From assembly GCF_050320075.1 (NCBI RefSeq), contig NZ_CP190018.1: DNA of 64,000 nucleotides. One strand, written 5' to 3'. Of the stretch, positions 69 to 64,000 are shown one piece after another. This DNA is from Escherichia coli. GTDB taxonomy: Bacteria > Pseudomonadota > Gammaproteobacteria > Enterobacterales > Enterobacteriaceae. The notes beneath the pieces were generated by a model. That model saw nothing but the letters and a program-made list of their open reading frames with translations, did not search any database and had not been told where the DNA came from. The translations under genes were made by a program, and so were the position numbers. Every line of letters begins with the position of its first letter. Position 1 is the first letter of the stretch.

Positions 69-638
69 TTATTTTTCTTCACTACGAAGCAGTTCATGCT
101 GTACTTTTGTTAAACATTCGTAAGACTCATCTTTGTTCGGGAGATGTGCTGTCATTCGAGCATAAGTTGGCTTCTCATCTTTAAAATATTTAACCATGAT
201 TGAATTATCAAGGACTGCCAACAACTGAGCTGGATCACTGCTCTTTTTTTGATAGATACCCGCTCTTATATAACTTCTAAACCGATCGCCGAGAAACGCC
301 GTTTTTTCTGCTGTATTTAGCAACTCCTGCAACGTTCCTTTGGTTGCATGATTTTCATTAAGGCGTAGTGATCCGACGCGAATTAAGAGTCTCGCCCCGC
401 TTGGTGTGAATTTGTTATTTTTACATATACCAAGTTCTGTTTGCCAATAATACTCACCTATGTCCTCATTCTGATACCATCTCCACATGGTTTTATTATT
501 TAAGACAGGAAACGCGGAAAAAATAGTACCCTTAGTGAAAATGGTAAAGCAATCTTGATCTTTAGCTTGTGTTTCGCAATTAGCTATAACACCAAAACTA
601 ACGAATATCATCAGCAAAAAGAACAAAGCTCTTTTCAT
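69..638 (-). CDS. Putative Rhs immunity protein: small secreted protein immediately downstream of the Rhs C-terminal tip, 4-bp overlap with rhs stop
   Basis: ORF track 189 aa; N-terminal hydrophobic signal-like segment [21 protein letters not shown]; AT-rich like the Rhs tip; position typical of RhsI genes. No homolog recognised. Confidence 0.5.
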
Positions 639-3600
639 TTTCTTATTCCTCTCGATGTTCTCTGTTTCATTTTAGCTAAAATTTCACCCAAATCATCTAT
701 CCCTGCTGTTGCTGGCCCATCGGGTTTATTAATGTCTGGGAATAAATAGGGTTCTGCACAAGTATATCCTGGTGGTAATTGAGTTGTTGGCCAAGTTGTC
801 TGTGGCAGGTAATCACTTGCTGTCTTTGTCTCCATCCCTGGATACTGGGGATCATCCTGCGGCGTACAAGTCAGATTGGGTTTTACCCACTTCCTGCAAT
901 ACAGTGTGTAATCGTAAGGACTTAATGCTCTGAAGAATGTTTTGAAAACATTAGGCGCACTACTGGCCTGGTCAATAGGATATGGCAGTCTTAATTGTTT
1001 CGCTATGTCTGGCAACTTACTTGGATCGGGCGTAGGCGGTTTGTTGGGTCTCGCTCCATATCCGCCATTATTTAAGTGTCCATATTTAGATGCCAGTCCC
1101 ATTGAATCTATATACTGAACCGGATTTAACGGATACTGATAAAAATTCCATCCCCCCTTCAGTCCAATCGGATCCTGAGTGATATACCGCCCCTGCAGCG
1201 GGTCATAATAGCGGTGGCGGTTGTAATACAGGCCGGACTCCTCATCATACTGCTGACCCGGCAGGCGGATGAGCTGCTGCAGCTGGTGCGGGTTCTCTTC
1301 ATTCAGCAGGTTGCCCCATTCATCGTATTCTGCGCACCATTCTGTTGCCCCTTCCGTGCTGACAAGCGCCAGCGGCAGGCCGCGATGGTCGCAGTGGTAC
1401 AGGTGGATTTTTCGCGCCGGCGTGTACACCGGGTCCATCTGGTTTTGTATCTGCTCCACCGTCAGGCCGCACGATGCCAGCCAGCGGCGGCTTTCCTCAC
1501 TCACCCGGTCAGCCAGGATTTCACTTTCCAGCCGGTCGAGCATCTGCACCAGCACCGGCGGGAACACCACACTGCCACCGTCTTCGCCGCCGGACTGCTG
1601 AAGGGCATCCGCCAGGCTGCGGCGCTGCGTTTTCGCCAGCTCACCGGTGGCGGTTTCAACTCTGATGAGTGGCGTGAAGCTCCCCGGCTGATAAACCGTC
1701 TGGATGCGGGTTCTGTCGTTCTGTATCGTGGTCAGCCGGTCGCCGTCCCAGCCGTACCAGGTCACTTCCGGTTTCCGTGACAGCGACATCCAGCCCGTCA
1801 GGTCCCGTTCACGCCGCCATACCCGTTTTGCCACCCTGCGGCCCAGCGGGTCGTAAAGATAGCGACTTTCGACCAGCGGCTCTGCATATTGTGTCCGCGT
1901 GTAGTGCACCAGCCGGTGCCGGCTGTCGTAATGATACCGGTGAGTCCGCTCATCATCCGTGCGGATAACCCCTTCCGGGATGAGGTCGGTTTTCTCTGTC
2001 AGCCTGCCGTGACGGTCATACCGGTAAAGATAGTGCGCGTCACGGGCGATACGGTTATCCGGCCACATGCTGAGGGTGCTGTCCGGGTGCAGCTCCGGGT
2101 CGGGCAGGCGGTTGCCTGCCGGGTCCGTGGCATACGGGATGCGGATATCCAGGTTCGCTGCCGTGGTGTGGACGCCGGTCAGCCTGCCGGTGTCGCTGTA
2201 GCTGTAACTCCGGGTCTGGCGCGGGCTGCTGATGCGGATGAGTTCGCCGTTGTCGTTCCAGGTGTAATCGCGGTCATACTGCAGGCTGTTCAGGTGCTGG
2301 CTCTGTAACTGCCCGGCAGAGGTGTAAGCGGTGGTGAGTTCATAACGGCCGAAGCTGCGCAGCGTTTCCCGGTGCAGGCGGTCGCGGGTGTACTCCACCA
2401 GCGGTGTGTCGCCGAGTTTCATGCCTGACAGCCAGCCGCTGCCGTAGGTCAGCCATTCCACGGCGGGCAGGCTGTCCGGTATACAGCGGTTCGCCAGTCC
2501 CTGCGCGTTGTAAGCGTGTCTGGTTTCATGCTGCCAGAGCAGTGCTTCCGTCTGCGGGTGATGCACCGTCTGGCGCTCACCGGTCAGGCGGCCTTTCTCA
2601 TCATACCCGTAATGCACCGTCACCCGGTGGCCTTCGCTGAGATGGCTGATGCCTGTCAGCCAGCCGCGTTCGTCATACTGCCACTGCTCTGCCGGTTCAC
2701 CATTCACCGTTCGCTGTGTGATGCGGTCTGCTTCGTCATAGTGCCAGTGGGTGACCAGCCCCTCATCCTCGCTGCGGATAAGTTTGCCGGTCAGGTCGTG
2801 GTGATAACGCTGTGTGCGGCCGTCAAAGCCGGTTTCCTGTATCAGCCGGTCAAGTACATCGTAACGGAAGGTGGTGTGGCTGCCGTTTTCACTGGTCAGG
2901 CGGATGACCCGCCCGGCAGCATCGTATTCCATACTGCGCGTCAGACCGCCCTGCGTGGTACGAACGGGCTTTCCCCACGCATCGTACTGTGTCCCGTTTC
3001 TGCTGCCGTCCGGGGCAATGACGGCGGTCAGGTCACCGGCGGCGTTGTATTCATACCGCGTTTCATGGCCCTGCGTGTCTTTCACCGCAATTAACTGTCC
3101 ACGGCTGTCGTATGCGCGGTACTGACTCAGCCCTTCCTCGCGGTGCACCGCCGTCATCTGACCAAAACGGTCATGGTCATAACGGGTTACATAACCGGAA
3201 CAGTCAGTGACGGTCAGCAACTGACCGTAACGGCTCCATGTCATGGTTTTCCGGCTGCCGGTGGCATCCTCCGTTGCGCAGGGTAAGTCACTGTGTGGAT
3301 TATCATAACGGTAGCGGGTGATATCGCCGTTGTGTGCGGTTTCCTGAATCAGACGGCCGGATTCATCATATTCCCGGCGCAATTCCAGCCCGTCAGGCCC
3401 GGTGGCTGACGTTAACTGGCTGTGGTGGTTATAGTAAAATGCCGATGCCCTGCCATCCGGTGTGGTGATGCGCGTGATGAGTCCCGTCACCACATCCGGG
3501 CTGTACTCAGTCGTCCGGCCTGCGGCATCCGTCTGTGCCTTAAGCCTGCCCACCGCGTCAAACTGACTCTGCGTGACGCTGCCGTCCGCGTGTTCCTTTT

Positions 3601-4834
3601 TCACCACCCGCTTCAGCCCGCCTTCGCCCTGCGTGTGCAGCACTTCACGGCGGTCCAGACTGTCGGTGATGGTGATGCGGTCTTTCTCATACTGATACGT
3701 GTAGCTTAAGCCTGCCGGGTTTAGCTGCTCTGTCACCCGCCCGTCGCTGTCGTAACGGTAACGGATTTCTGGCCGGCCCGCGCGGTGGTGCGCCACCATC
3801 CGGCCCCGGTATTTATCATCGTAAGTAAAGCTGCGCACCTGTTTGCCACTGCGGTCATACACCGCCGCCAGTTCGCCGCGTGGCGTCCAGCCATAGCGCA
3901 CCAGCGGCGCGGCAGGTAAATTCTCCGGGTATTCCGGGTCGTGTGTCAGCCACACGGCAGACAGACGGATACCGTTGTCCCGGCCATATTCCGTGTAGTC
4001 CGGCAGGGTATCAGGAAAAGCGGACGGTTCCGTCCCGCCGGAAGAGGCCTGCTGCCGGGCCTCTTCTGCCCGCTGCGCCTGCGTGGTCAGTACCAGCCGG
4101 AAGTGACGCCCGGCACCATCCGTCACGCCGGTGATTTCGCCGCTGAATTCACCGCCAGCCTCACGGTGAAACGTCTGTGTGCGCCCGAAGCGGTCCACCA
4201 GCCCGGTCAGTACCCGGTACGGCGGCAGCGGCGCGGGCAGCACCTCATCCGCTTCCGGCACCCGCTCACACCAGCCGAGCAGCCACCACGGCCCCTGCGG
4301 ACTGTTTGTCGCCAGATAACGATGCGGACTTAAGCGGAGTTCTTCCGGCAGCGCCTGCCAGAGTGCGGTCAGCCGGTGACCTTCATCCAGTTTCAGGACA
4401 CCGCCACGCACCAGCCAGAGTGACTCGCTGCGGCTGTAACCGTCCTCACCGGGAAACAGGTGCTCAAAATACAGGCTCCTGCCGCCGTTATCACTGAGTA
4501 TCAGTGTGTTATCGCGCAGCTGTAGGCGGATATCCGCAGGCATTTTCCAGCCGGGGCCGAGGCTCCCCACCGGCGCGGGCGTTTTTGTCCGGTAACTGCT
4601 GTAGGTGCGGGAGAGGATGAACGGCAGCGGGCCGGGCAGGGCAAGGTCGGTTTCGCCGGGAAGGACCTTCGCGCCGAGCAGCGGATTGACCGGATGGCCG
4701 GACGTCACCCCGCCGGGGCACACCGAACAGGCCACGCCGGTGGGGGCACCAATACGTACCCCGGCAGAACCCTGAACAATGCTACCGCCATACTGCGTCA
4801 TGTCGCCCTGACGCGCCGCCGGTTTTCCGCTCAT
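635..4834 (-). CDS. rhsB: Rhs-family polymorphic toxin (PAAR-like N-terminus, YD-repeat core, variable C-terminal tip)
   Basis: 1399-aa ORF; N-terminal [26 protein letters not shown]-like motif; long GC-rich YD-repeat core; DPIGL core-end motif about 179 aa from C-terminus followed by AT-rich tip; locus next to nikR as for rhsB in K-12. Confidence 0.9.
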
Positions 4835-14142: not shown

Positions 14143-14808
14143 TTAACTCGCCTGCAAAGCGTTGATTTCGGATTTATCTGCCAGTCTTTTCAACAGCATA
14201 TTGAGTAATACGCCATACATTGGCAGGAAGAAAACGATACTGATTAACACTTTGAAACAGTAATCGACCAGTGCGATTTCCATCCAGTGTTCAGCCATAA
14301 AGGCATCCGGGCTACGCCAGAAGGCAATGAAGAAGAAGGCCAGCGTGTCGCTGACGTTACCGAACAGTGTGGACGCTGTCGGTGCCAGCCACCAGCGGCG
14401 ACTCTGACGCAGGCGGTTAAAAACGTGCACGTCGAGGATCTGTCCCAGCGCGTAGGCCATGAAACTGGCGGTGGCGATACGGGCGACAAACAGGTTGAAG
14501 TGGGCGAGCGCGCCGAATCCTTGCCATGACCCCATATAAAACAGCGATGAGATGACGTAGGAGATCAGCAACGCCGGGATCATCACCGCAAAGATGATAC
14601 GACGGGCCAGCGGTGCGCCAAAAATACGCACAGTCAGGTCGGTAGCAAGGAAAATAAACGGAAAGCTAAATGCGCCCCAGGTGGTATGGAAACCAAAAAT
14701 GGAGACGGGAAGCTGAACCAGATAGTTACTGGAGGTGATCACCAGCAGATGAAATAACGATAACCAGAACAACGCCTTATAGCGTTGAGTTTGCGAGAAA
14801 ACGTTCAT
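14143..14808 (-). CDS. yhhQ: Queuosine-precursor transporter YhhQ
   Basis: 221-aa membrane protein; conserved position. Confidence 0.8.
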   Translation of the reverse strand: MNVFSQTQRYKALFWLSLFHLLVITSSNYLVQLPVSIFGFHTTWGAFSFPFIFLATDLTVRIFGAPLARRIIFAVMIPALLISYVISSLFYMGSWQGFGALAHFNLFVARIATASFMAYALGQILDVHVFNRLRQSRRWWLAPTASTLFGNVSDTLAFFFIAFWRSPDAFMAEHWMEIALVDYCFKVLISIVFFLPMYGVLLNMLLKRLADKSEINALQAS

Positions 14809-31435: not shown

Positions 31436-32182
31436 ATGCATTATGCCGTTGTTGTCATGCTTGAACTGCTTTGCTGTATTCACGCTTACCGTACCGGACA
31501 AGAGCGGTACTGGATTTTTATCATTTTCTGTTTTCCGGTGATTGGCTGCGTGGCGTATTTCGTCATAGTGATGCTGCCTGAAACGGGCGCTGACCGTCAC
31601 GGGCATACTTTGCTGATGCGCCTGCAGGACAAACTCAACCCTGAGCGCCACCTGCGCAAATTAACCGAAGAACTGGCGATTGCCGAGACCAATCAAAACC
31701 ATTATGCGTTGGCTAATGAACTGGCGCGTCTGGGGCGTTATCACGAAGCTGTTCCCCATTATCAGCAGGCGTTAAGCGGGATATTCGCCCATGAAGCGGC
31801 AATGATGCTAAGCCTGGCGCAGGCACAGTTTGCTATTCAGGAGTTCGCCGCCTGTCAGCAGACGCTGGAAGATGTGATGCGTTATAACCCTGATTTTCAG
31901 TCGGCAGACGGGCATTTGTTATTTGCCAGAACGTTAGCCGCACAAGAAAAATACGCTGATGCGGAAAGCGAGTTTGAAGTATTGATTTCTTATTACCCCG
32001 GCCCGCAGGCGCGTATTTACTATGCGGAAATGTTGGCGAAAATGAGTCGGTTACGTGAAGCCAACGAGCAGTATGTTGCCGTGGTTGATACGGCTAAACG
32101 CTCAAGACCTCATTATAGAAAACACCACCGGGAATGGATTAAGACCGCCAATGAGCGGCTGAAGCAGAGTGTGGTGCAATGA
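31436..32182 (+). CDS. Hypothetical membrane-anchored protein: N-terminal two-TM hairpin (PLDc_N-like FPVIGCVAYF motif) plus helical TPR-like repeat domain
   Basis: 248-aa ORF with coherent protein-like composition between livF and ugpB; not in the K-12 gene order as I recall it. Start codon uncertain (weak RBS). Confidence 0.5.
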   Translation: MHYAVVVMLELLCCIHAYRTGQERYWIFIIFCFPVIGCVAYFVIVMLPETGADRHGHTLLMRLQDKLNPERHLRKLTEELAIAETNQNHYALANELARLGRYHEAVPHYQQALSGIFAHEAAMMLSLAQAQFAIQEFAACQQTLEDVMRYNPDFQSADGHLLFARTLAAQEKYADAESEFEVLISYYPGPQARIYYAEMLAKMSRLREANEQYVAVVDTAKRSRPHYRKHHREWIKTANERLKQSVVQ

Positions 32183-39900: not shown

Positions 39901-39929
39901 GTCAGGGCAAGCCGGGTAATGACTCCAAC

Positions 39930-40433
39930 TTACTGATAGTGTTTTATGTTCAGATAATGCCCGATGACTTTGTCATGCAGCTCCACCGATTTTGAGAACG
40001 ACAGTGACTTCCGTCCCAGCCTTGCCAGATGTTGTCTCAGATTCAGGTTATGTCGCTCAATGCGCTGAGTGTAACGCTTGCTGATTACGTGCAGCTTTCC
40101 CTTCAGGCGGGATTCATACAGCGGCCAGCCATCCGTCATCCATACCACGACCTCAAAGGCCGACAGCAGGCTCAGAAGACGCTCCAGTGTGGCCAGAGTG
40201 CGTTCACCGAAGACGTGCGCCACAACCGTCCTCCGTATCCTGTCATACGCGTAAAACAGCCAGCGCTGACGTGATTTAGCACCGACGTAGCCCCACTGTT
40301 CGTCCATTTCAGCGCAGACAATCACATCACTGCCCGGCTGTATGCGCGAGGTTACCGACTGCGGCCTGAGTTTTTTAAGTGACGTAAAATCGTGTTGAGG
40401 CCAACGCCCATAATGCGGGCGGTTGCCCGGCAT
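39930..40433 (-). CDS. insB: IS1 transposase InsB (expressed as InsAB' by -1 frameshift)
   Basis: 167-aa ORF, recognised as the IS1 InsB frame from its sequence and position within the element. Confidence 0.9.
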
Positions 40434-40627
40434 CCAACACCATTCATGGCCATATCAATGATTTTCTGGTGTGTACCGGGTTGAGAAGCGGTGTAAGTGA
40501 ACTGCAGTTGCCATGTTTTACGGCAGTGAGAGCAGAGATAGCGCTGATGTCCGGCAGTACTTTTACCGTTACGCACCACGCCTTCAGTAGCTGAGCAGGA
40601 GGGACAACTGATGGAGATGGAAGCCAC
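40352..40627 (-). CDS. insA: IS1 protein InsA
   Basis: 91 aa, Cys-rich zinc-finger N-terminus ([14 protein letters not shown]...CSHCRKTW). Confidence 0.9.
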
Positions 40628-40655
40628 GGGAGCACCTCAAAAACACCATCATACA

Positions 40656-41114
40656 CTAAATCAGTAAGTTGGCACCATTACCGGTATTTGCGATAAGATG
40701 TTGACAGAGGATAAATTCATAACTAACAGTTAATGTTTCTGTATCCAGTTGATTTTCAATGATCTGATGATGAATAGCCGATAAAAAAGCGCCTCTTAGT
40801 TGTATATAATAATACTTTCCCCATCTACCAAATCTATTTATTCGATAGAAGTCAAATTCCATAAATAATTGTTCATTATTGTTAATGGAATTAATAAATA
40901 ATGGAGTGCTTTTATCAATTAATTTACAAAATGTTATACCATGAAACTGTGAACCAAGCCCCGTATTAGTAATACTATTTAAGAATGAGAATGTAAATAT
41001 TTCATCCTCATGCCCGCTCTGCCAGCGATTACCTGTAGACTCAGAAGTCCCACAACCTGCGGAGATGCTTCCTTGTTGTTCTCCCGTTACTGTCAGGTAA
41101 ACAATATTACTCAT
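40656..41114 (-). pseudogene. Hcp-domain gene fragment (yhhZ-like Hcp-effector N-terminus) truncated by IS1; last ~9 codons and the stop lie in the IS1 end
   Basis: 152-aa ORF with Hcp hallmark KLIDKSTPLF; ORF runs into the IS1 terminal repeat (40656-40682). Confidence 0.7.
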
Positions 41115-41349: not shown

Positions 41350-41838
41350 TTACTTCACCCGCGCCATATAATACGCATCGACATATTCACCATTACGTAA
41401 TGCGTACTTCTTGCCAGTCCCTTCAATCTCAAATCCAAATTTTTTATAGACTTTAATTGCTGGCGCGTTATCGATGAACACCGTTAGCTCAATACGATCT
41501 ACCCGCAACCAGTTGTCGCACATTTCAATCATCTCTCGCATCAGGGCGCTGGCGACGCCGCGATTCTTCCAACGGGAGTCGACACAAATACCAAAATCTG
41601 CAACATGACTGCGGCGTGGGCGCTGTTGCACGTCAATGGTGAGATGGCCCACGACGTCTCCATCAATACAGGCGACGAGTTGCTTGATGCCGGGACGATC
41701 GGCGAGTCGCTCCTGCCACATATGATCGGAAGGATGAGGCACCTGTAGCGTGTTGCAATACACCTCCGGCTGGGCGTGAATCTGCCTGATGGCCTCGTAA
41801 TCGCGCGTTTCAGCATGGCGTATCACTATCTCACTCAT
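41350..41838 (-). CDS. yhhY: GNAT-family N-acetyltransferase YhhY
   Basis: Start at MSEIVIRHAETRDYEAIRQIH (162 aa); acetyl-CoA motif RWKNRGVASALM. Confidence 0.85.
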   Translation of the reverse strand: MSEIVIRHAETRDYEAIRQIHAQPEVYCNTLQVPHPSDHMWQERLADRPGIKQLVACIDGDVVGHLTIDVQQRPRRSHVADFGICVDSRWKNRGVASALMREMIEMCDNWLRVDRIELTVFIDNAPAIKVYKKFGFEIEGTGKKYALRNGEYVDAYYMARVK

Positions 41839-41926
41839 TCCTTTGTCCTCTTTGGGGTAAATGTCCCTTTCAACATCATTGACTTTCAAATGCGAGTCAA
41901 ATGCATTTTTTTTGCAAAAAGTGTTG

Positions 41927-41957
41927 GACAAGTGCGAATGAGAATGATTATTATTGT
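41927..41957 (+). promoter_or_regulatory. Fur box / promoter of ryhB
   Basis: aatgagaatgattattattgtc resembles the Fur consensus gataatgataatcattatc, immediately upstream of RyhB. Confidence 0.6.
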
Positions 41958-41960
41958 CTT

Positions 41961-42050
41961 GCGATCAGGAAGACCCTCGCGGAGAACCTGAAAGCACGAC
42001 ATTGCTCACATTGCTTCCAGTATTACTTAGCCAGCCGGGTGCTGGCTTTT
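41961..42050 (+). ncRNA. ryhB: RyhB small RNA (Fur-repressed iron-sparing sRNA)
   Basis: gcgatcaggaagaccctcgcggagaacctgaaagcacgacattgctcacattgcttccagtattacttagccagccgggtgctggcttttttttt matches RyhB as I recall it, including terminator hairpin and T-run; between yhhY and yhhX as in K-12. Confidence 0.9.
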
Positions 42051-42172
42051 TTTTTGATCTTTCGTTTTCAATTTATCCACGGGAAGTGCTTGTGTTCGTT
42101 ATGCGCACTCCAGTAGGAACCACGTCCGCTTTGCGCTAAGGTGTAAATAATCACCTTAAAAAGGACGAAATC

Positions 42173-43210
42173 ATGGTCATCAACTGCGCCTTTATTGGCT
42201 TCGGCAAAAGCACCACCCGTTACCATCTGCCGTATGTACTTAACCGCAAGGATAGCTGGCATGTCGCGCATATTTTTCGCCGCCATGCGAAGCCGGAAGA
42301 ACAGGCCCCCATTTACTCTCATATCCATTTCACCAGCGATCTCGACGAAGTACTAAACGATCCCGATGTTAAGCTGGTTGTGGTCTGCACCCATGCAGAC
42401 AGCCACTTCGAGTACGCGAAGCGCGCGCTGGAAGCCGGGAAAAATGTGCTGGTCGAAAAACCGTTCACCCCGACGCTTGCCCAGGCGAAGGAGCTGTTTG
42501 CGCTGGCGAAAAGCAAAGGACTGACCGTCACGCCGTATCAGAATCGTCGTTTTGATTCCTGCTTCCTGACAGCGAAAAAAGCGATTGAAAGTGGCAAGTT
42601 GGGAGAGATTGTCGAAGTGGAAAGCCATTTTGACTATTACCGCCCGGTGGCAGAAACCAAACCTGGGCTGCCGCAGGATGGCGCGTTCTATGGTCTTGGT
42701 GTGCATACGATGGACCAGATTATTTCTCTGTTCGGTCGCCCGGATCACGTCGCTTATGACATCCGCAGCCTGCGTAATAAAGCCAATCCTGACGACACCT
42801 TTGAAGCGCAGCTGTTTTATGGCGACCTGAAAGCCATCGTCAAAACCAGCCATCTGGTGAAAATCGATTATCCGAAATTTATCGTTCACGGTAAGAAAGG
42901 TTCGTTTATTAAATACGGTATCGACCAGCAGGAAACCAGCCTCAAGGCTAATATTATGCCGGGCGAACCGGGATTCGCAGCGGATGATTCGGTCGGTGTG
43001 CTGGAGTATGTCAATGACGAGGGTGTGACGGTCAGAGAAGAGATGAAGCCGGAGATGGGCGATTACGGGCGCGTTTATGATGCGTTGTATCAAACCATCA
43101 CCAACGGTGCGCCAAATTACGTCAAGGAATCTGAAGTTCTTACCAATCTGGAAATCCTTGAACGAGGATTTGAGCAAGCCTCTCCCTCCACAGTGACTCT
43201 CGCGAAGTAA
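42173..43210 (+). CDS. yhhX: Gfo/Idh/MocA-family oxidoreductase YhhX
   Basis: 345 aa, N-terminal Rossmann fold. Confidence 0.85.
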   Translation: MVINCAFIGFGKSTTRYHLPYVLNRKDSWHVAHIFRRHAKPEEQAPIYSHIHFTSDLDEVLNDPDVKLVVVCTHADSHFEYAKRALEAGKNVLVEKPFTPTLAQAKELFALAKSKGLTVTPYQNRRFDSCFLTAKKAIESGKLGEIVEVESHFDYYRPVAETKPGLPQDGAFYGLGVHTMDQIISLFGRPDHVAYDIRSLRNKANPDDTFEAQLFYGDLKAIVKTSHLVKIDYPKFIVHGKKGSFIKYGIDQQETSLKANIMPGEPGFAADDSVGVLEYVNDEGVTVREEMKPEMGDYGRVYDALYQTITNGAPNYVKESEVLTNLEILERGFEQASPSTVTLAK

Positions 43211-47396: not shown

Positions 47397-49493
47397 ATGG
47401 AAAAGCACGGAGCTGAATTGCTTTTACAGCGGATGTTAGGAAATACCACCGCTACTTTCAGGGAAGGGCAATGGGAAGCCATAGATGCAGTGGTTAATCA
47501 GCGGCGAAAACTGCTGGTTGTACAGCGCACCGGCTGGGGGAAAAGTGCCGTGTACTTCATCGCCAGTAAAATCTTCCGCGATCGCGGCGCTGGCCCGACA
47601 ATTATCATCTCTCCTTTGCTTGCCCTGATGCGTAACCAGGTTGCCGCCGCTGAACGGTTAGGTATTACGGCTGAAACGTTGAATTCTACAAACAGGGAAG
47701 AATGGCAGCGCATTAGCGATAAGTTGCTGCAAGGTGAGGTCGATTGCTTGCTGGTTTCCCCGGAACGTTTGGCAAACCAGGACTTTATCGAAACGGTTTT
47801 ATATCCTATAGCCGATCGTATTGGCTTGCTTGTGGTCGACGAGGCGCACTGCATCTCTGATTGGGGCCACGATTTTCGCCCGGATTACCGACGTATATTA
47901 GATATTTTGCGCCAACTGCCTGCGAATACCCCTGTTCTGGGTACAACCGCGACAGCGAATAACCGTGTTGTTGAGGATATCCGTCAGCAATTGGGTGACA
48001 TTGTGATTCAGCGTGGAACGCTGGCTCGCGAAAGTTTGGCGCTTGATGCCTTAGTCTTAGGAGAACAGTCATCCCGTCTGGCATGGTTAGCAACGGTTAT
48101 CCCTCAGTTTTCCAAATCGGGAATTGTTTATACCCTGACGACTCGCGATGCTGAACTTGTCGCCGAGTGGTTAAGGAAAAATGGTATCAGTGCATTTGCT
48201 TACTACAGCGGCGTGACTTGTGAAGGCGCGGAAGATTCTAATACTGCCAGGGAATATCTGGAGCAGGCACTGCTGGCAAATAAAATCAAAGTGCTGGTCG
48301 CGACGACGGCATTAGGTATGGGGTTTGATAAACCTGATTTAGGTTTCGTCATTCATTATCAGATGCCGGGGTCTATTGTCGGTTACTACCAACAGGTGGG
48401 GCGTGCCGGGCGTGCTATAGATTCCGCAGTTGGCATATTGCTTTGTGGTGGTGAAGACCGCGCTATTCATCAATTCTTCCGTGAAAGCGCCTTTCCTGCG
48501 GAGGCGCAAATTCATGAAATACTCAACGTACTTAGCGAGAATGACGGTCTTACCCTACGAGGCATTGAACAACGGACGAATCTTCGTTATGGGCAAATAG
48601 AAAAAGCACTGAAATTATTGGTAGCGGAAAATCCATCGCCTGTGGTGTATACCGAGAAATTATGGCGCAGAACTATCGTCAGTTTTTCTCCTGATCATGA
48701 ACGAATTAACCATTTGATGAATCAGAGAAAAAGTGAACTGGCAGACGTTGAAAGCTATATCACGACCAAGGAGTGCAAAATGCAATTTCTGCGCCGTGCA
48801 CTCGATGAGCCAAGTGCCGAACGTTGTGGTAAATGTAGCAGTTGTCTTCAGCATCCGTTATTGTCGCCCGACATTGATAGCGGCTTACTCCATGCGGCAA
48901 ATTTATTTATTAAACACGCTGACCTGCCGTTAAATCTCAATAAACAGGTGGCAGCTGGGGCTTTTACGCAATACGGATTTAAAGGGAACTTGCCTGCGGG
49001 TTTACAAGGATCTACGGGGCGAATCCTTTCTCGTTGGGGAGATTCCGGGTGGGGAAAGCAGGTAGCACAGGAGAAAAAAACGGGGCGCTTAAGTGATGAG
49101 CTGGTAGAAGCATGTGCGGAAATGGTTCGCCAACGCTGGAATCCGCATCCTGAACCAACCTGGGTATGCTGCGTTCCTTCATTAAGGCACCTCGACCTGG
49201 TTCCTGATTTTGCCCGGCGACTGGCGGCGAAACTTGGCTTACCTTTTATTGATGCCATTGAAAAAGTCGTGGACAATCCACCGCAGAAAATGCAGCAAAA
49301 CCGTTTTCACCAGTGTCAAAATCTCGACGGGGCGTTTGTGATTACCCCTCCTTTGATGCCAGGTCCGGCGTTGCTGGTTGACGATATCGTGGATTCTGCA
49401 TGGACGCTGACAGTTCTGACAGCACTGTTACGCCAGGCAGGTTGCCCGACGGTTTATCCTCTTGCCCTTGCTTCTACCTCGGTAAAAAATTGA
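47397..49493 (+). CDS. RecQ-family superfamily-2 helicase fused to a C-terminal ComF-type phosphoribosyltransferase-like domain (PsyrT/RqlH-like candidate toxin)
   Basis: 698 aa. RecQ motifs: FREGQWEAIDAV, Walker A TGWGKS, DEAH box VVDEAHCISDWGHDFRPDY, YYQQVGRAGR, Zn-binding CKMQFLRR...CGKCSSC. C-terminus: QNRFHQCQNLDGAF...ALLVDDIVDSAWTLT matching ComF/PRTase PRPP-loop pattern. Good RBS aggag 8 bp upstream. Confidence 0.8.
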   Translation: MEKHGAELLLQRMLGNTTATFREGQWEAIDAVVNQRRKLLVVQRTGWGKSAVYFIASKIFRDRGAGPTIIISPLLALMRNQVAAAERLGITAETLNSTNREEWQRISDKLLQGEVDCLLVSPERLANQDFIETVLYPIADRIGLLVVDEAHCISDWGHDFRPDYRRILDILRQLPANTPVLGTTATANNRVVEDIRQQLGDIVIQRGTLARESLALDALVLGEQSSRLAWLATVIPQFSKSGIVYTLTTRDAELVAEWLRKNGISAFAYYSGVTCEGAEDSNTAREYLEQALLANKIKVLVATTALGMGFDKPDLGFVIHYQMPGSIVGYYQQVGRAGRAIDSAVGILLCGGEDRAIHQFFRESAFPAEAQIHEILNVLSENDGLTLRGIEQRTNLRYGQIEKALKLLVAENPSPVVYTEKLWRRTIVSFSPDHERINHLMNQRKSELADVESYITTKECKMQFLRRALDEPSAERCGKCSSCLQHPLLSPDIDSGLLHAANLFIKHADLPLNLNKQVAAGAFTQYGFKGNLPAGLQGSTGRILSRWGDSGWGKQVAQEKKTGRLSDELVEACAEMVRQRWNPHPEPTWVCCVPSLRHLDLVPDFARRLAAKLGLPFIDAIEKVVDNPPQKMQQNRFHQCQNLDGAFVITPPLMPGPALLVDDIVDSAWTLTVLTALLRQAGCPTVYPLALASTSVKN

Positions 49494-50695
49494 TGAATCT
49501 TTCAGCCAATGCACAAGCGACTCTCCTGCTAACCAGCGATTTTTCTCGCGCGGCGGCGAGTGAGTATAAACCTCTTAGTAATAGTGAATGGGGGAAGTTT
49601 GCATTATGGCTGAAGCACCAACGTATCAGTCCCGCCGATCTTCTGGTGCCGCAACCGCAAGAGAAACTTACAGGCTGGAGCGATCCGCGTATTTCTCAGG
49701 AGCGTATTCTTGGCTTGCTGGCGCGTGGTCATAGTCTGGCGTTGGCGGTAGATAAGTGGCAACGCGCCGGTTTATGGATCTTAACCCGCGGAGATGCCGA
49801 TTATCCCGTTCGCTTGAAAAACCGATTGCGAACGGATGCACCTCCCGTTTTATTTGGCTGCGGGAATAAAGCATTACTGCAAGCGGAAGGTATGGCGATT
49901 GTTGGCTCGCGAGATGCTCCGACTGCCGATTTGCGCTATACCCAACAACTGGCAGCGAAACTGGCCCAACAGGGGATTTGCGTTATCTCTGGTGGTGCGC
50001 GAGGTATTGATGAATGTGCAATAGCGTCGGCGCTGGAGGCCGGAGGAACTGCCGTTGGCGTATTAGCTGATAGCTTGTTAAAAACGAGCACGTTAGTGAA
50101 ATGGCGTGAAGGGCTTATAGCAGGCAACCTGGTGTTGATTTCACCGTTTTACCCAGAGGTACGTTTCACCGTCGGCAATGCGATGGCGCGGAATAAATAT
50201 ATTTATTGCCTTGCTGAAAGCGCAATGGTTGTACGTGCGGGAATGACCGGTGGAACGATAACCGGAGCGATGGAGGCGTTAAAACATCAGTGGCTGCCTG
50301 TTCTGGTTAAACCAAATCAGGATGTGCAATCAGCCAATTCACGATTAGTAGAAAATGGGGCGTCATGGAGTGCTGAACAGGCTGAGAATGTGACGATCAG
50401 ACTGCCAGACGTTCCTGGGCTGATGTATGACAGAGCACTCCGTAACGCTCAACCAGAATTGTTTTCGCTGCACGAAGATGACGCAAATTACGCAGTGATG
50501 CCCTCGCATACCCCTGTCGATTTTTATCAACTTTTTGTGGCGGAACTGGCGATCCTTGCAAAGGAATCGATAAGTATTGAAAGGCTGGCGTCTTGTACTG
50601 GTTTAACCATCGAACAAATTAGTATGTGGCTGAACCGCGCAGAAGAAGAGGGAAGGGTTATCCGATTGGGCGAAGGTCATTATCAGTTCAGGTAA
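49493..50695 (+). CDS. DprA (Smf)-like Rossmann-fold protein with C-terminal winged-helix (PsyrA/RqlI-like candidate antitoxin)
   Basis: 400 aa from the ATG overlapping the upstream stop (TGATG). DprA motifs: IVGSRDAP...ICVISGGARGIDECAIASALEAGGTAVGVLADSL...NAMARNKYIY...VVRAGMTGGT. Confidence 0.75.
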   Translation: MNLSANAQATLLLTSDFSRAAASEYKPLSNSEWGKFALWLKHQRISPADLLVPQPQEKLTGWSDPRISQERILGLLARGHSLALAVDKWQRAGLWILTRGDADYPVRLKNRLRTDAPPVLFGCGNKALLQAEGMAIVGSRDAPTADLRYTQQLAAKLAQQGICVISGGARGIDECAIASALEAGGTAVGVLADSLLKTSTLVKWREGLIAGNLVLISPFYPEVRFTVGNAMARNKYIYCLAESAMVVRAGMTGGTITGAMEALKHQWLPVLVKPNQDVQSANSRLVENGASWSAEQAENVTIRLPDVPGLMYDRALRNAQPELFSLHEDDANYAVMPSHTPVDFYQLFVAELAILAKESISIERLASCTGLTIEQISMWLNRAEEEGRVIRLGEGHYQFR

Positions 50696-62386: not shown

Positions 62387-63904
62387 ATGGAAAGAATAAT
62401 GCAAAACGGAAAATGGATTTTGACCTCGCTGGTAATGACTTTTTTTGGCATCCCCATACTGGCGCAATTTTTGGCAGCGGTTGTTGCCATGCTGGGGGCC
62501 GGGCTTGCCGCTATTCTTGAGTTTTGCAATTTACTCTTTACACCAACAATTTATCTTCTACTCAACGTCTTTATGCTGACGCTGGGCGCATTACTGCTAT
62601 TTTTCTCTGGGCGAGTGTGGGCGGGCGATAGCGCACCAGAAAACAGAGAAATAGCCGCCTGGCGACAATGTCTTTTTTTAGTTCCCGCTTTATTAACCCT
62701 GGTTGGCTGGATAATCACGCTACATCTGGCAGATTATCAATTTCGCCAGATGGGAGCCGGTTGGTTGGCAAACCTTATGCTTCCCTGGTTGGGCGTTTTT
62801 ACAGTCTCATTCGTCGGTGGTGAGTACTGGTGGATAGTCATTATTCCCGTTGGCGCGCATATCAGTTTTTCACTGGGATACGGCTGGCCGACCAGACACC
62901 CTTTAACCGGCACCTCCGGTCTACGTTGCCGTAATTTACTTCTGTTCATTCTTCTCTTACTGGGTATTGTCGCTGGTTATCAGGCTTATTTATATAAACA
63001 GCTTAATCCCGGCGTCGGTGTGCGTGAAAATATTGATACCTGGGCCTGGCGACCCGATAAACTTAATAATCAACTGACGCCACTGCGTGGTAAACCACAA
63101 ATTCAATTTACGCAAAACTGGCCGCGACTCGATGGCGCTACGGCGGCGTACCCCATTTATGCCTCTGCATTTTATGCATTAAGTGTAATACCAGAGGATT
63201 TTCACGTTTGGGATTATCTGGATAACTCTCGTACGCAAGAAGCATATAACAAAATCGTTAACGGTGATGCCGATATTATTTTCGTGGCGCAACCTTCCGA
63301 TGGGCAAAAAAAACGCGCTGAGAAATCGGGCGTCACTTTGCTGTACACGCCATTTGCCCGTGAAGCGTTTGTTTTCATCGTCAATGCGGATAATCCGGTT
63401 AATTCCCTGACTGAACAACAAGTGCGTGACATTTTTAGTGGCGCAATTACCAACTGGCGCACGGTTGGCGGTAACGATCAGGAGATCCAGACCTGGCAAC
63501 GCCCGGAAGACTCTGGCAGCCAGACAGTGATGCAATCGCAGGTCATGAAAAATGTCCGCATGATCTCGCCGCAGGAAACCGAAGTGGCAAGCATGATGGA
63601 GGGAATGATTAAAGTCGTTGCCGAATACCGTAATACAAACAACGCAATAGGCTACACCTTCCGCTATTACGCAACACAAATGAATGCCGATAAAAATATA
63701 AAACTGCTAGCGATTAACGGTATTGCACCGACTGCAGAAAATATTCGCAATGGCAAATATCCCTATGTCGTCGATGCATTTATGGTAACGCGGGACAATA
63801 TGACGTCAGAAACACAAAAACTGGTTGAATGGTTTTTAACGCCGCAGGGGCAGAGTCTGGTGGAAGATGTGGGCTATGTGCCGCTGTATCCAACAATGAA
63901 ATAA
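62387..63904 (+). CDS. Membrane protein with N-terminal multi-TM domain and C-terminal PstS-like periplasmic binding (PBP-like) domain; intact yzgL-like gene
   Basis: 505-aa ORF; hydrophobic N-terminal ~200 aa then soluble domain; occupies the position of the short yzgL pseudogene downstream of glgP in K-12 (my recollection). Confidence 0.6.
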   Translation: MERIMQNGKWILTSLVMTFFGIPILAQFLAAVVAMLGAGLAAILEFCNLLFTPTIYLLLNVFMLTLGALLLFFSGRVWAGDSAPENREIAAWRQCLFLVPALLTLVGWIITLHLADYQFRQMGAGWLANLMLPWLGVFTVSFVGGEYWWIVIIPVGAHISFSLGYGWPTRHPLTGTSGLRCRNLLLFILLLLGIVAGYQAYLYKQLNPGVGVRENIDTWAWRPDKLNNQLTPLRGKPQIQFTQNWPRLDGATAAYPIYASAFYALSVIPEDFHVWDYLDNSRTQEAYNKIVNGDADIIFVAQPSDGQKKRAEKSGVTLLYTPFAREAFVFIVNADNPVNSLTEQQVRDIFSGAITNWRTVGGNDQEIQTWQRPEDSGSQTVMQSQVMKNVRMISPQETEVASMMEGMIKVVAEYRNTNNAIGYTFRYYATQMNADKNIKLLAINGIAPTAENIRNGKYPYVVDAFMVTRDNMTSETQKLVEWFLTPQGQSLVEDVGYVPLYPTMK

Positions 63905-63929
63905 CGCTCGAGAGAAAGGAATCAGCGCA

Positions 63930-64000
63930 ATGAATAAATTCACCTGTGTTTTACTATTAGGTACGGCGCTACTGGCGGGATGTGTCGACCGGGAAGGGTA
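63930..64000 (+). CDS. 5' end of a lipoprotein gene (partial, runs off the window)
   Basis: atgaataaattcacctgtgttttactattaggtacggcgctactggcgggatgtgtc encodes MNKFTCVLLLGTALLAGCV with lipobox LLAGC; only 23 codons visible. Confidence 0.3.
   Translation, partial: MNKFTCVLLLGTALLAGCVDREG

Follow-up and report, generated by a model that had tools for sequence, protein, structure and literature searches.

The question raised by this locus is whether the ryhB gene, encoding the small RNA (sRNA) RyhB, is intact and functional in an E. coli chromosome that carries an IS1 copy and an IS1-associated deletion close by. RyhB is elevated in strains without Fur or under iron limitation, and by reducing the levels of mRNAs for non-essential iron proteins it spares iron (PMC4676285). 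The poly(U) tail of the RyhB terminator is bound to the proximal face of Hfq, a UA-rich sequence is bound to the rim, and residues G44/C45 in the seed are used for fur/uof, sdhCDAB, and sodB (PMC6191717). The window analyzed here is a single stretch of 64,000 nucleotides, and all coordinates below are positions in it. A first-pass annotation had placed RyhB at 41927-42050 with its Fur box and terminator intact, a few kb from a region remodelled by IS1, and had described the locus as a useful landmark showing that the rearrangement did not extend past yhhY. In this work the RNA, its control elements, the neighboring genes, and the IS1 junction were compared with E. coli K-12 and with other complete E. 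coli genomes.

Identity and extent of the RyhB RNA

Positions 41961-42050 on the plus strand contain the 90-nt RyhB sRNA, which agrees with K-12 RyhB at 90 of 90 nucleotides both by alignment and by direct string comparison. The placement of RyhB by the first-pass annotation is thus confirmed, on the plus strand; the interval 41927-42050 begins inside the -35 hexamer and ends at RyhB nucleotide 90, and the U-run continues to 42055. The curated K-12 ryhB feature is 95 nt in length and would reach 42055 in the window, and in the alignment the U-run through 42055 is also the same as in K-12. The transcription start is the G at 41961, as inferred from the identity with K-12, and the RNA begins with GCGATCAGGAAGACCC when the plus strand is read directly from that position.

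When both strands of the 64 kb were scanned against Rfam, RF00057 (RyhB) was the sole family above its gathering score. The match lies at 41990-42054 on the plus strand with a score of 83.1 bits (E = 3.6e-14; gathering score 55) and spans model positions 1-67 of 67, i.e., it is not truncated. The RF00057 model represents only the 3' two-thirds of RyhB, and the whole gene was therefore compared with the curated K-12 locus. The core target-pairing (seed) region, whose extent of 41997-42017 on the plus strand we take to be approximate, has the same sequence as in K-12, and the K-12-identical G44/C45 residues are found at 42004-42005. No mismatch to K-12 RyhB was detected in the seed, in the terminator region, or elsewhere in the 90 nt, G44/C45 included. 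Folding of 41962-42054, an interval shifted by one base, as a single sequence gave a minimum free energy of -20.7 kcal/mol (z = +0.15 against shuffled sequences). The RNA is thus no more stable than the controls, a comparison that does not discriminate for an sRNA this short and with so little structure, and the assignment was based on the Rfam covariance model and the identity with K-12.

Promoter, Fur box, and terminator

The ryhB promoter is of the sigma-70 type. Its -35 element TTGGACA is located at 41924-41930 on the plus strand and is identical to that of K-12 (the scanner called TGGACA at 41925-41930), and the -10 element TATTAT is located at 41949-41954 on the same strand. The two elements have 10 of 12 consensus matches and an 18-nt spacer, the distance from the end of the -10 element to the inferred start at 41961 is 6 nt, and this was the one promoter-like site called by the consensus scan in 41700-42300.

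The Fur box, GAGAATGATTATTATTGTC, occupies 41940-41958 and matches the consensus GATAATGATAATCATTATC at 16 of 19 positions. It was reported as intact by the first-pass annotation, and this holds, since it is identical to the K-12 box and is the best site in the window as well as the only one with three or fewer mismatches on either strand of the 64 kb; none of 100 dinucleotide shuffles yielded a site at that threshold. A second match to the consensus (14/19) starts at 41934, shifted 6 bp from the main box, an offset consistent with Fur sites being built of hexamer repeats. The main box overlaps the -10 hexamer (41949-41954), the layout expected for repression by promoter occlusion. Binding of Fur at the box would be expected from the sequence match together with the rise of RyhB in strains without Fur (PMC4676285). 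The other near-matches in the window (14/19 at 14230, 14236, and 12834) fall within the yhhQ/yhhS coding regions and were treated as chance occurrences.

The Rho-independent terminator, AGCCAGC-CGGGT-GCTGGCT followed by a U-run, spans 42029-42055 on the plus strand. The terminator scan found a 7-bp stem at 42029-42047 with five G-C pairs, followed by T8, and this stem is also base-paired in the structure line of the Rfam alignment. As the first-pass annotation had stated, the terminator is intact, with a sequence identical to that of K-12.

Neighboring genes

The left neighbor is the divergent yhhY gene encoding an N-acetyltransferase (41350-41838, minus strand). It is intact and is annotated at the same coordinates in the near-identical strain YZLc1-3, and its product has the same protein accession, WP_001445779.1, as in the IS1-free strain CFSAN061763. 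The right neighbor, yhhX, encodes an oxidoreductase (42173-43210, plus strand) and is intact according to the open reading frame list and annotation. The gene order yhhY, ryhB, and yhhX is that of K-12 MG1655 in reverse orientation; in K-12 as well, ryhB is on the strand opposite to yhhY. As a landmark between yhhY and yhhX, the ryhB locus proved dependable.

All the sequence-level attributes of RyhB were thus found at this locus: the RF00057 score, the core/seed, a Fur box on the promoter, a terminator with a U-tail, and the position between yhhY and yhhX. Judged by its sequence, 41961-42050 is almost certainly the canonical, functional ryhB gene of E. coli.

Conservation of ryhB and a minority promoter allele

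A comparison with 5,426 complete E. coli genomes placed the 336-bp intergenic block in 5,424 of them, in every case on the chromosome; two of the 5,426 gave no RyhB match at all. The 90-nt RyhB is 100% identical in 5,360 of the 5,424 records. In strain 23AR0151 (NZ_CP195448.1, 310823-310921) the RyhB match extends over 99 bp at only 90.9% identity, suggestive of a small insertion in the gene. In the automatic RefSeq annotation of the non-K-12 genomes examined there is no ncRNA feature at ryhB, and only the curated K-12 record carries the ryhB label. The missing label reflects incomplete annotation and does not mean that the gene is absent, and recognition of the gene from its sequence is therefore useful for annotators of this window.

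Alignment of 41830-42180 (351 bp) to the corresponding K-12 MG1655 interval revealed five differences, none of which is located in the RNA, the Fur box, the -35 element, the spacer, or the -10 element. Three are small differences between the terminator and yhhX. The other two are upstream of the RNA: the T-tract at 41906-41913, upstream of the -35 element, has eight T residues versus seven in K-12, and 41960, position -1 relative to the start, is T versus C in K-12. An 85-bp segment that includes position -1 (41915-41999) has exact matches in 394 of the 5,424 records, and nearly all the others differ from it by one base; -1T is accordingly a minority lineage allele, present in approximately 7% of complete E. 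coli records.

It could be argued that -1T and the extra upstream T measurably alter ryhB output or Fur repression relative to the K-12 paradigm. Both are real differences from K-12, the allele containing -1T is carried by a minority of records, and position -1 is only 2 bp past the 19-bp Fur core, so that it could fall within an extended Fur footprint. Such an effect is nevertheless very unlikely in our view, as the Fur core, the -35 and -10 elements, and the spacer are unchanged versus K-12. Starts at a purine are preferentially preceded by a pyrimidine, and since the C to T change leaves a pyrimidine at -1, a functional effect is not expected. The -1T allele is also found in hundreds of genomes from varied hosts, as expected of a neutral lineage polymorphism. 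If the allele did shift the iron threshold or the maximal output of ryhB, which we doubt strongly, approximately 7% of sequenced E. coli would have a quantitatively different iron-sparing response.

IS1 insertion and the adjacent deletion

A 768-bp IS1 copy occupies 39915-40682, minus strand. Its identity is 100% with the IS1 of strain U1 and 93.2% with IS1E of K-12. Compared with the IS1-free strain CFSAN061763, 1,958 bp are absent (locus L002, positions 1885-3842), with IS1 in their place. The missing segment starts 13 bp before the end of yrhB, takes in yrhD and yrhA, and continues through the 3' 746 bp of yhhZ/tssD. The yhhZ remnant (40683-41114, minus strand, 144 codons) still matches the Hcp domain PF05638. 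No target-site duplication was found: the 9-mers on either side of IS1, GGCAAGCCG and GGTATTTGC, differ, as expected after an IS1-associated adjacent deletion. Only two complete genomes, those of YZLc1-3 (chicken, China) and Ec-U3 (human), contain the exact junction in a single uninterrupted match; in the close relative U1, IS1 is instead located within yrhA and nothing else of the region is missing. The window and YZLc1-3 differ at two positions in the first 50 kb.

To the right of IS1, the segment 40682-42200, which runs through yhhY and ryhB into yhhX, is collinear with CFSAN061763, from which it differs by 2 mismatches in 1,519 bp (99.87% identity), and with K-12, to which it is 96.5% identical. 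The rearrangement therefore stops at 40683 within yhhZ, about 0.67 kb short of yhhY, in agreement with the earlier statement that it does not extend past that gene. The first-pass annotation was also correct that IS1 is nearby, but "a few kb" overstated the distance, which is 1,279 bp (about 1.28 kb) from the near end of IS1 to the start of ryhB. The ryhB locus is confirmed as a landmark, and the right-hand limit of the IS1-associated deletion is fixed at 40683, inside yhhZ.

With IS1 only 1.28 kb from ryhB and 1,958 bp of neighboring DNA gone, the gene might be intact in sequence only and be affected indirectly, by read-out transcription from IS1 or by its altered context. However, yhhY, the yhhZ remnant, and the transposase genes of IS1 are all minus-strand genes whose transcription proceeds away from ryhB, and no read-through into ryhB would be expected. 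In addition, IS1 is separated from the ryhB -35 element by approximately 1.24 kb of unaltered DNA that contains yhhY in full as well as the intergenic region between yhhY and ryhB. On the grounds of gene orientation and this unaltered intervening DNA, we rejected the proposal that IS1 drives or disturbs ryhB; an indirect effect has hardly any probability left, and an intact ryhB beyond the limit of the deletion is the preferred reading.

Other features of the window

Several other segments of the window were recorded in the course of the comparison. An insert at 47397-50692, between gntU and yhgN, is absent from K-12 and contains two overlapping genes, one for a RecQ-like helicase of 698 aa and the other for a protein with a DprA/SLOG domain. 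They match the PADLOC models PsyrT at 1064 bits and PsyrA at 663 bits, respectively, and on that basis are a PsyrTA-type toxin-antitoxin/anti-phage pair. Between livF and ugpB, 31436-32182 carries a gene for a 248-aa tetratricopeptide-repeat protein with no PADLOC match; K-12 presumably has no gene in the livF-ugpB gap. A gene for an RHS element core protein is located at 635-4834, with a small downstream open reading frame at 69-638, and both of the positions (4369 and 4673) at which the first 50 kb of the window departs from YZLc1-3 are in this RHS region. Downstream of glgP, at 63266-64000, the near-identical strain is annotated with two tandem genes for PstS-family phosphate-binding proteins; in K-12 we take the corresponding position to be near glpD.

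Predicted regulation and comparison with known RyhB systems

The RyhB gene described here is already known: it is a textbook gene, and the locus provides nothing new on RyhB biology. Because the RNA is identical to that of K-12, the published RyhB mechanism should apply. When iron is plentiful, Fe2+-Fur would occupy the box that overlaps the -10 element and block ryhB transcription. When iron is scarce, Fur would leave the box, and sigma-70 RNA polymerase would then make the 90-nt RNA, ending at the intrinsic terminator. Hfq would hold RyhB via the 3' U-tail and a UA-rich stretch, and the central seed would pair with mRNAs such as sodB and sdhCDAB, which encode non-essential iron proteins, leading to their repression and decay and thereby to the sparing of iron. 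The expression of RyhB, its regulation by Fur, its binding to Hfq, and its repression of targets are thus predictions for this strain, drawn from the identity with K-12 in conjunction with the published work (PMC4676285, PMC6191717).

The closest known system is RyhB of E. coli K-12 (b4451), which has the same 90 nt, the same Fur box, -35 element, -10 element, and terminator, and the same neighbors, yhhY and yhhX. The difference between the two lies in the surrounding DNA: in K-12, IS1E is inserted in yrhA and yhhZ is whole, whereas in the window an IS1-associated deletion begins at the 3' end of yrhB and reaches into yhhZ. Other Enterobacterales have pairs of RyhB paralogues, e.g., RyhB-1 and RyhB-2 (RfrA/RfrB) of Salmonella. 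Such pairs belong to the same family as the RNA found here and share the conserved core and Fur control; in contrast to them, there is a single Rfam match in the window, and RyhB has a median of one place per E. coli genome.
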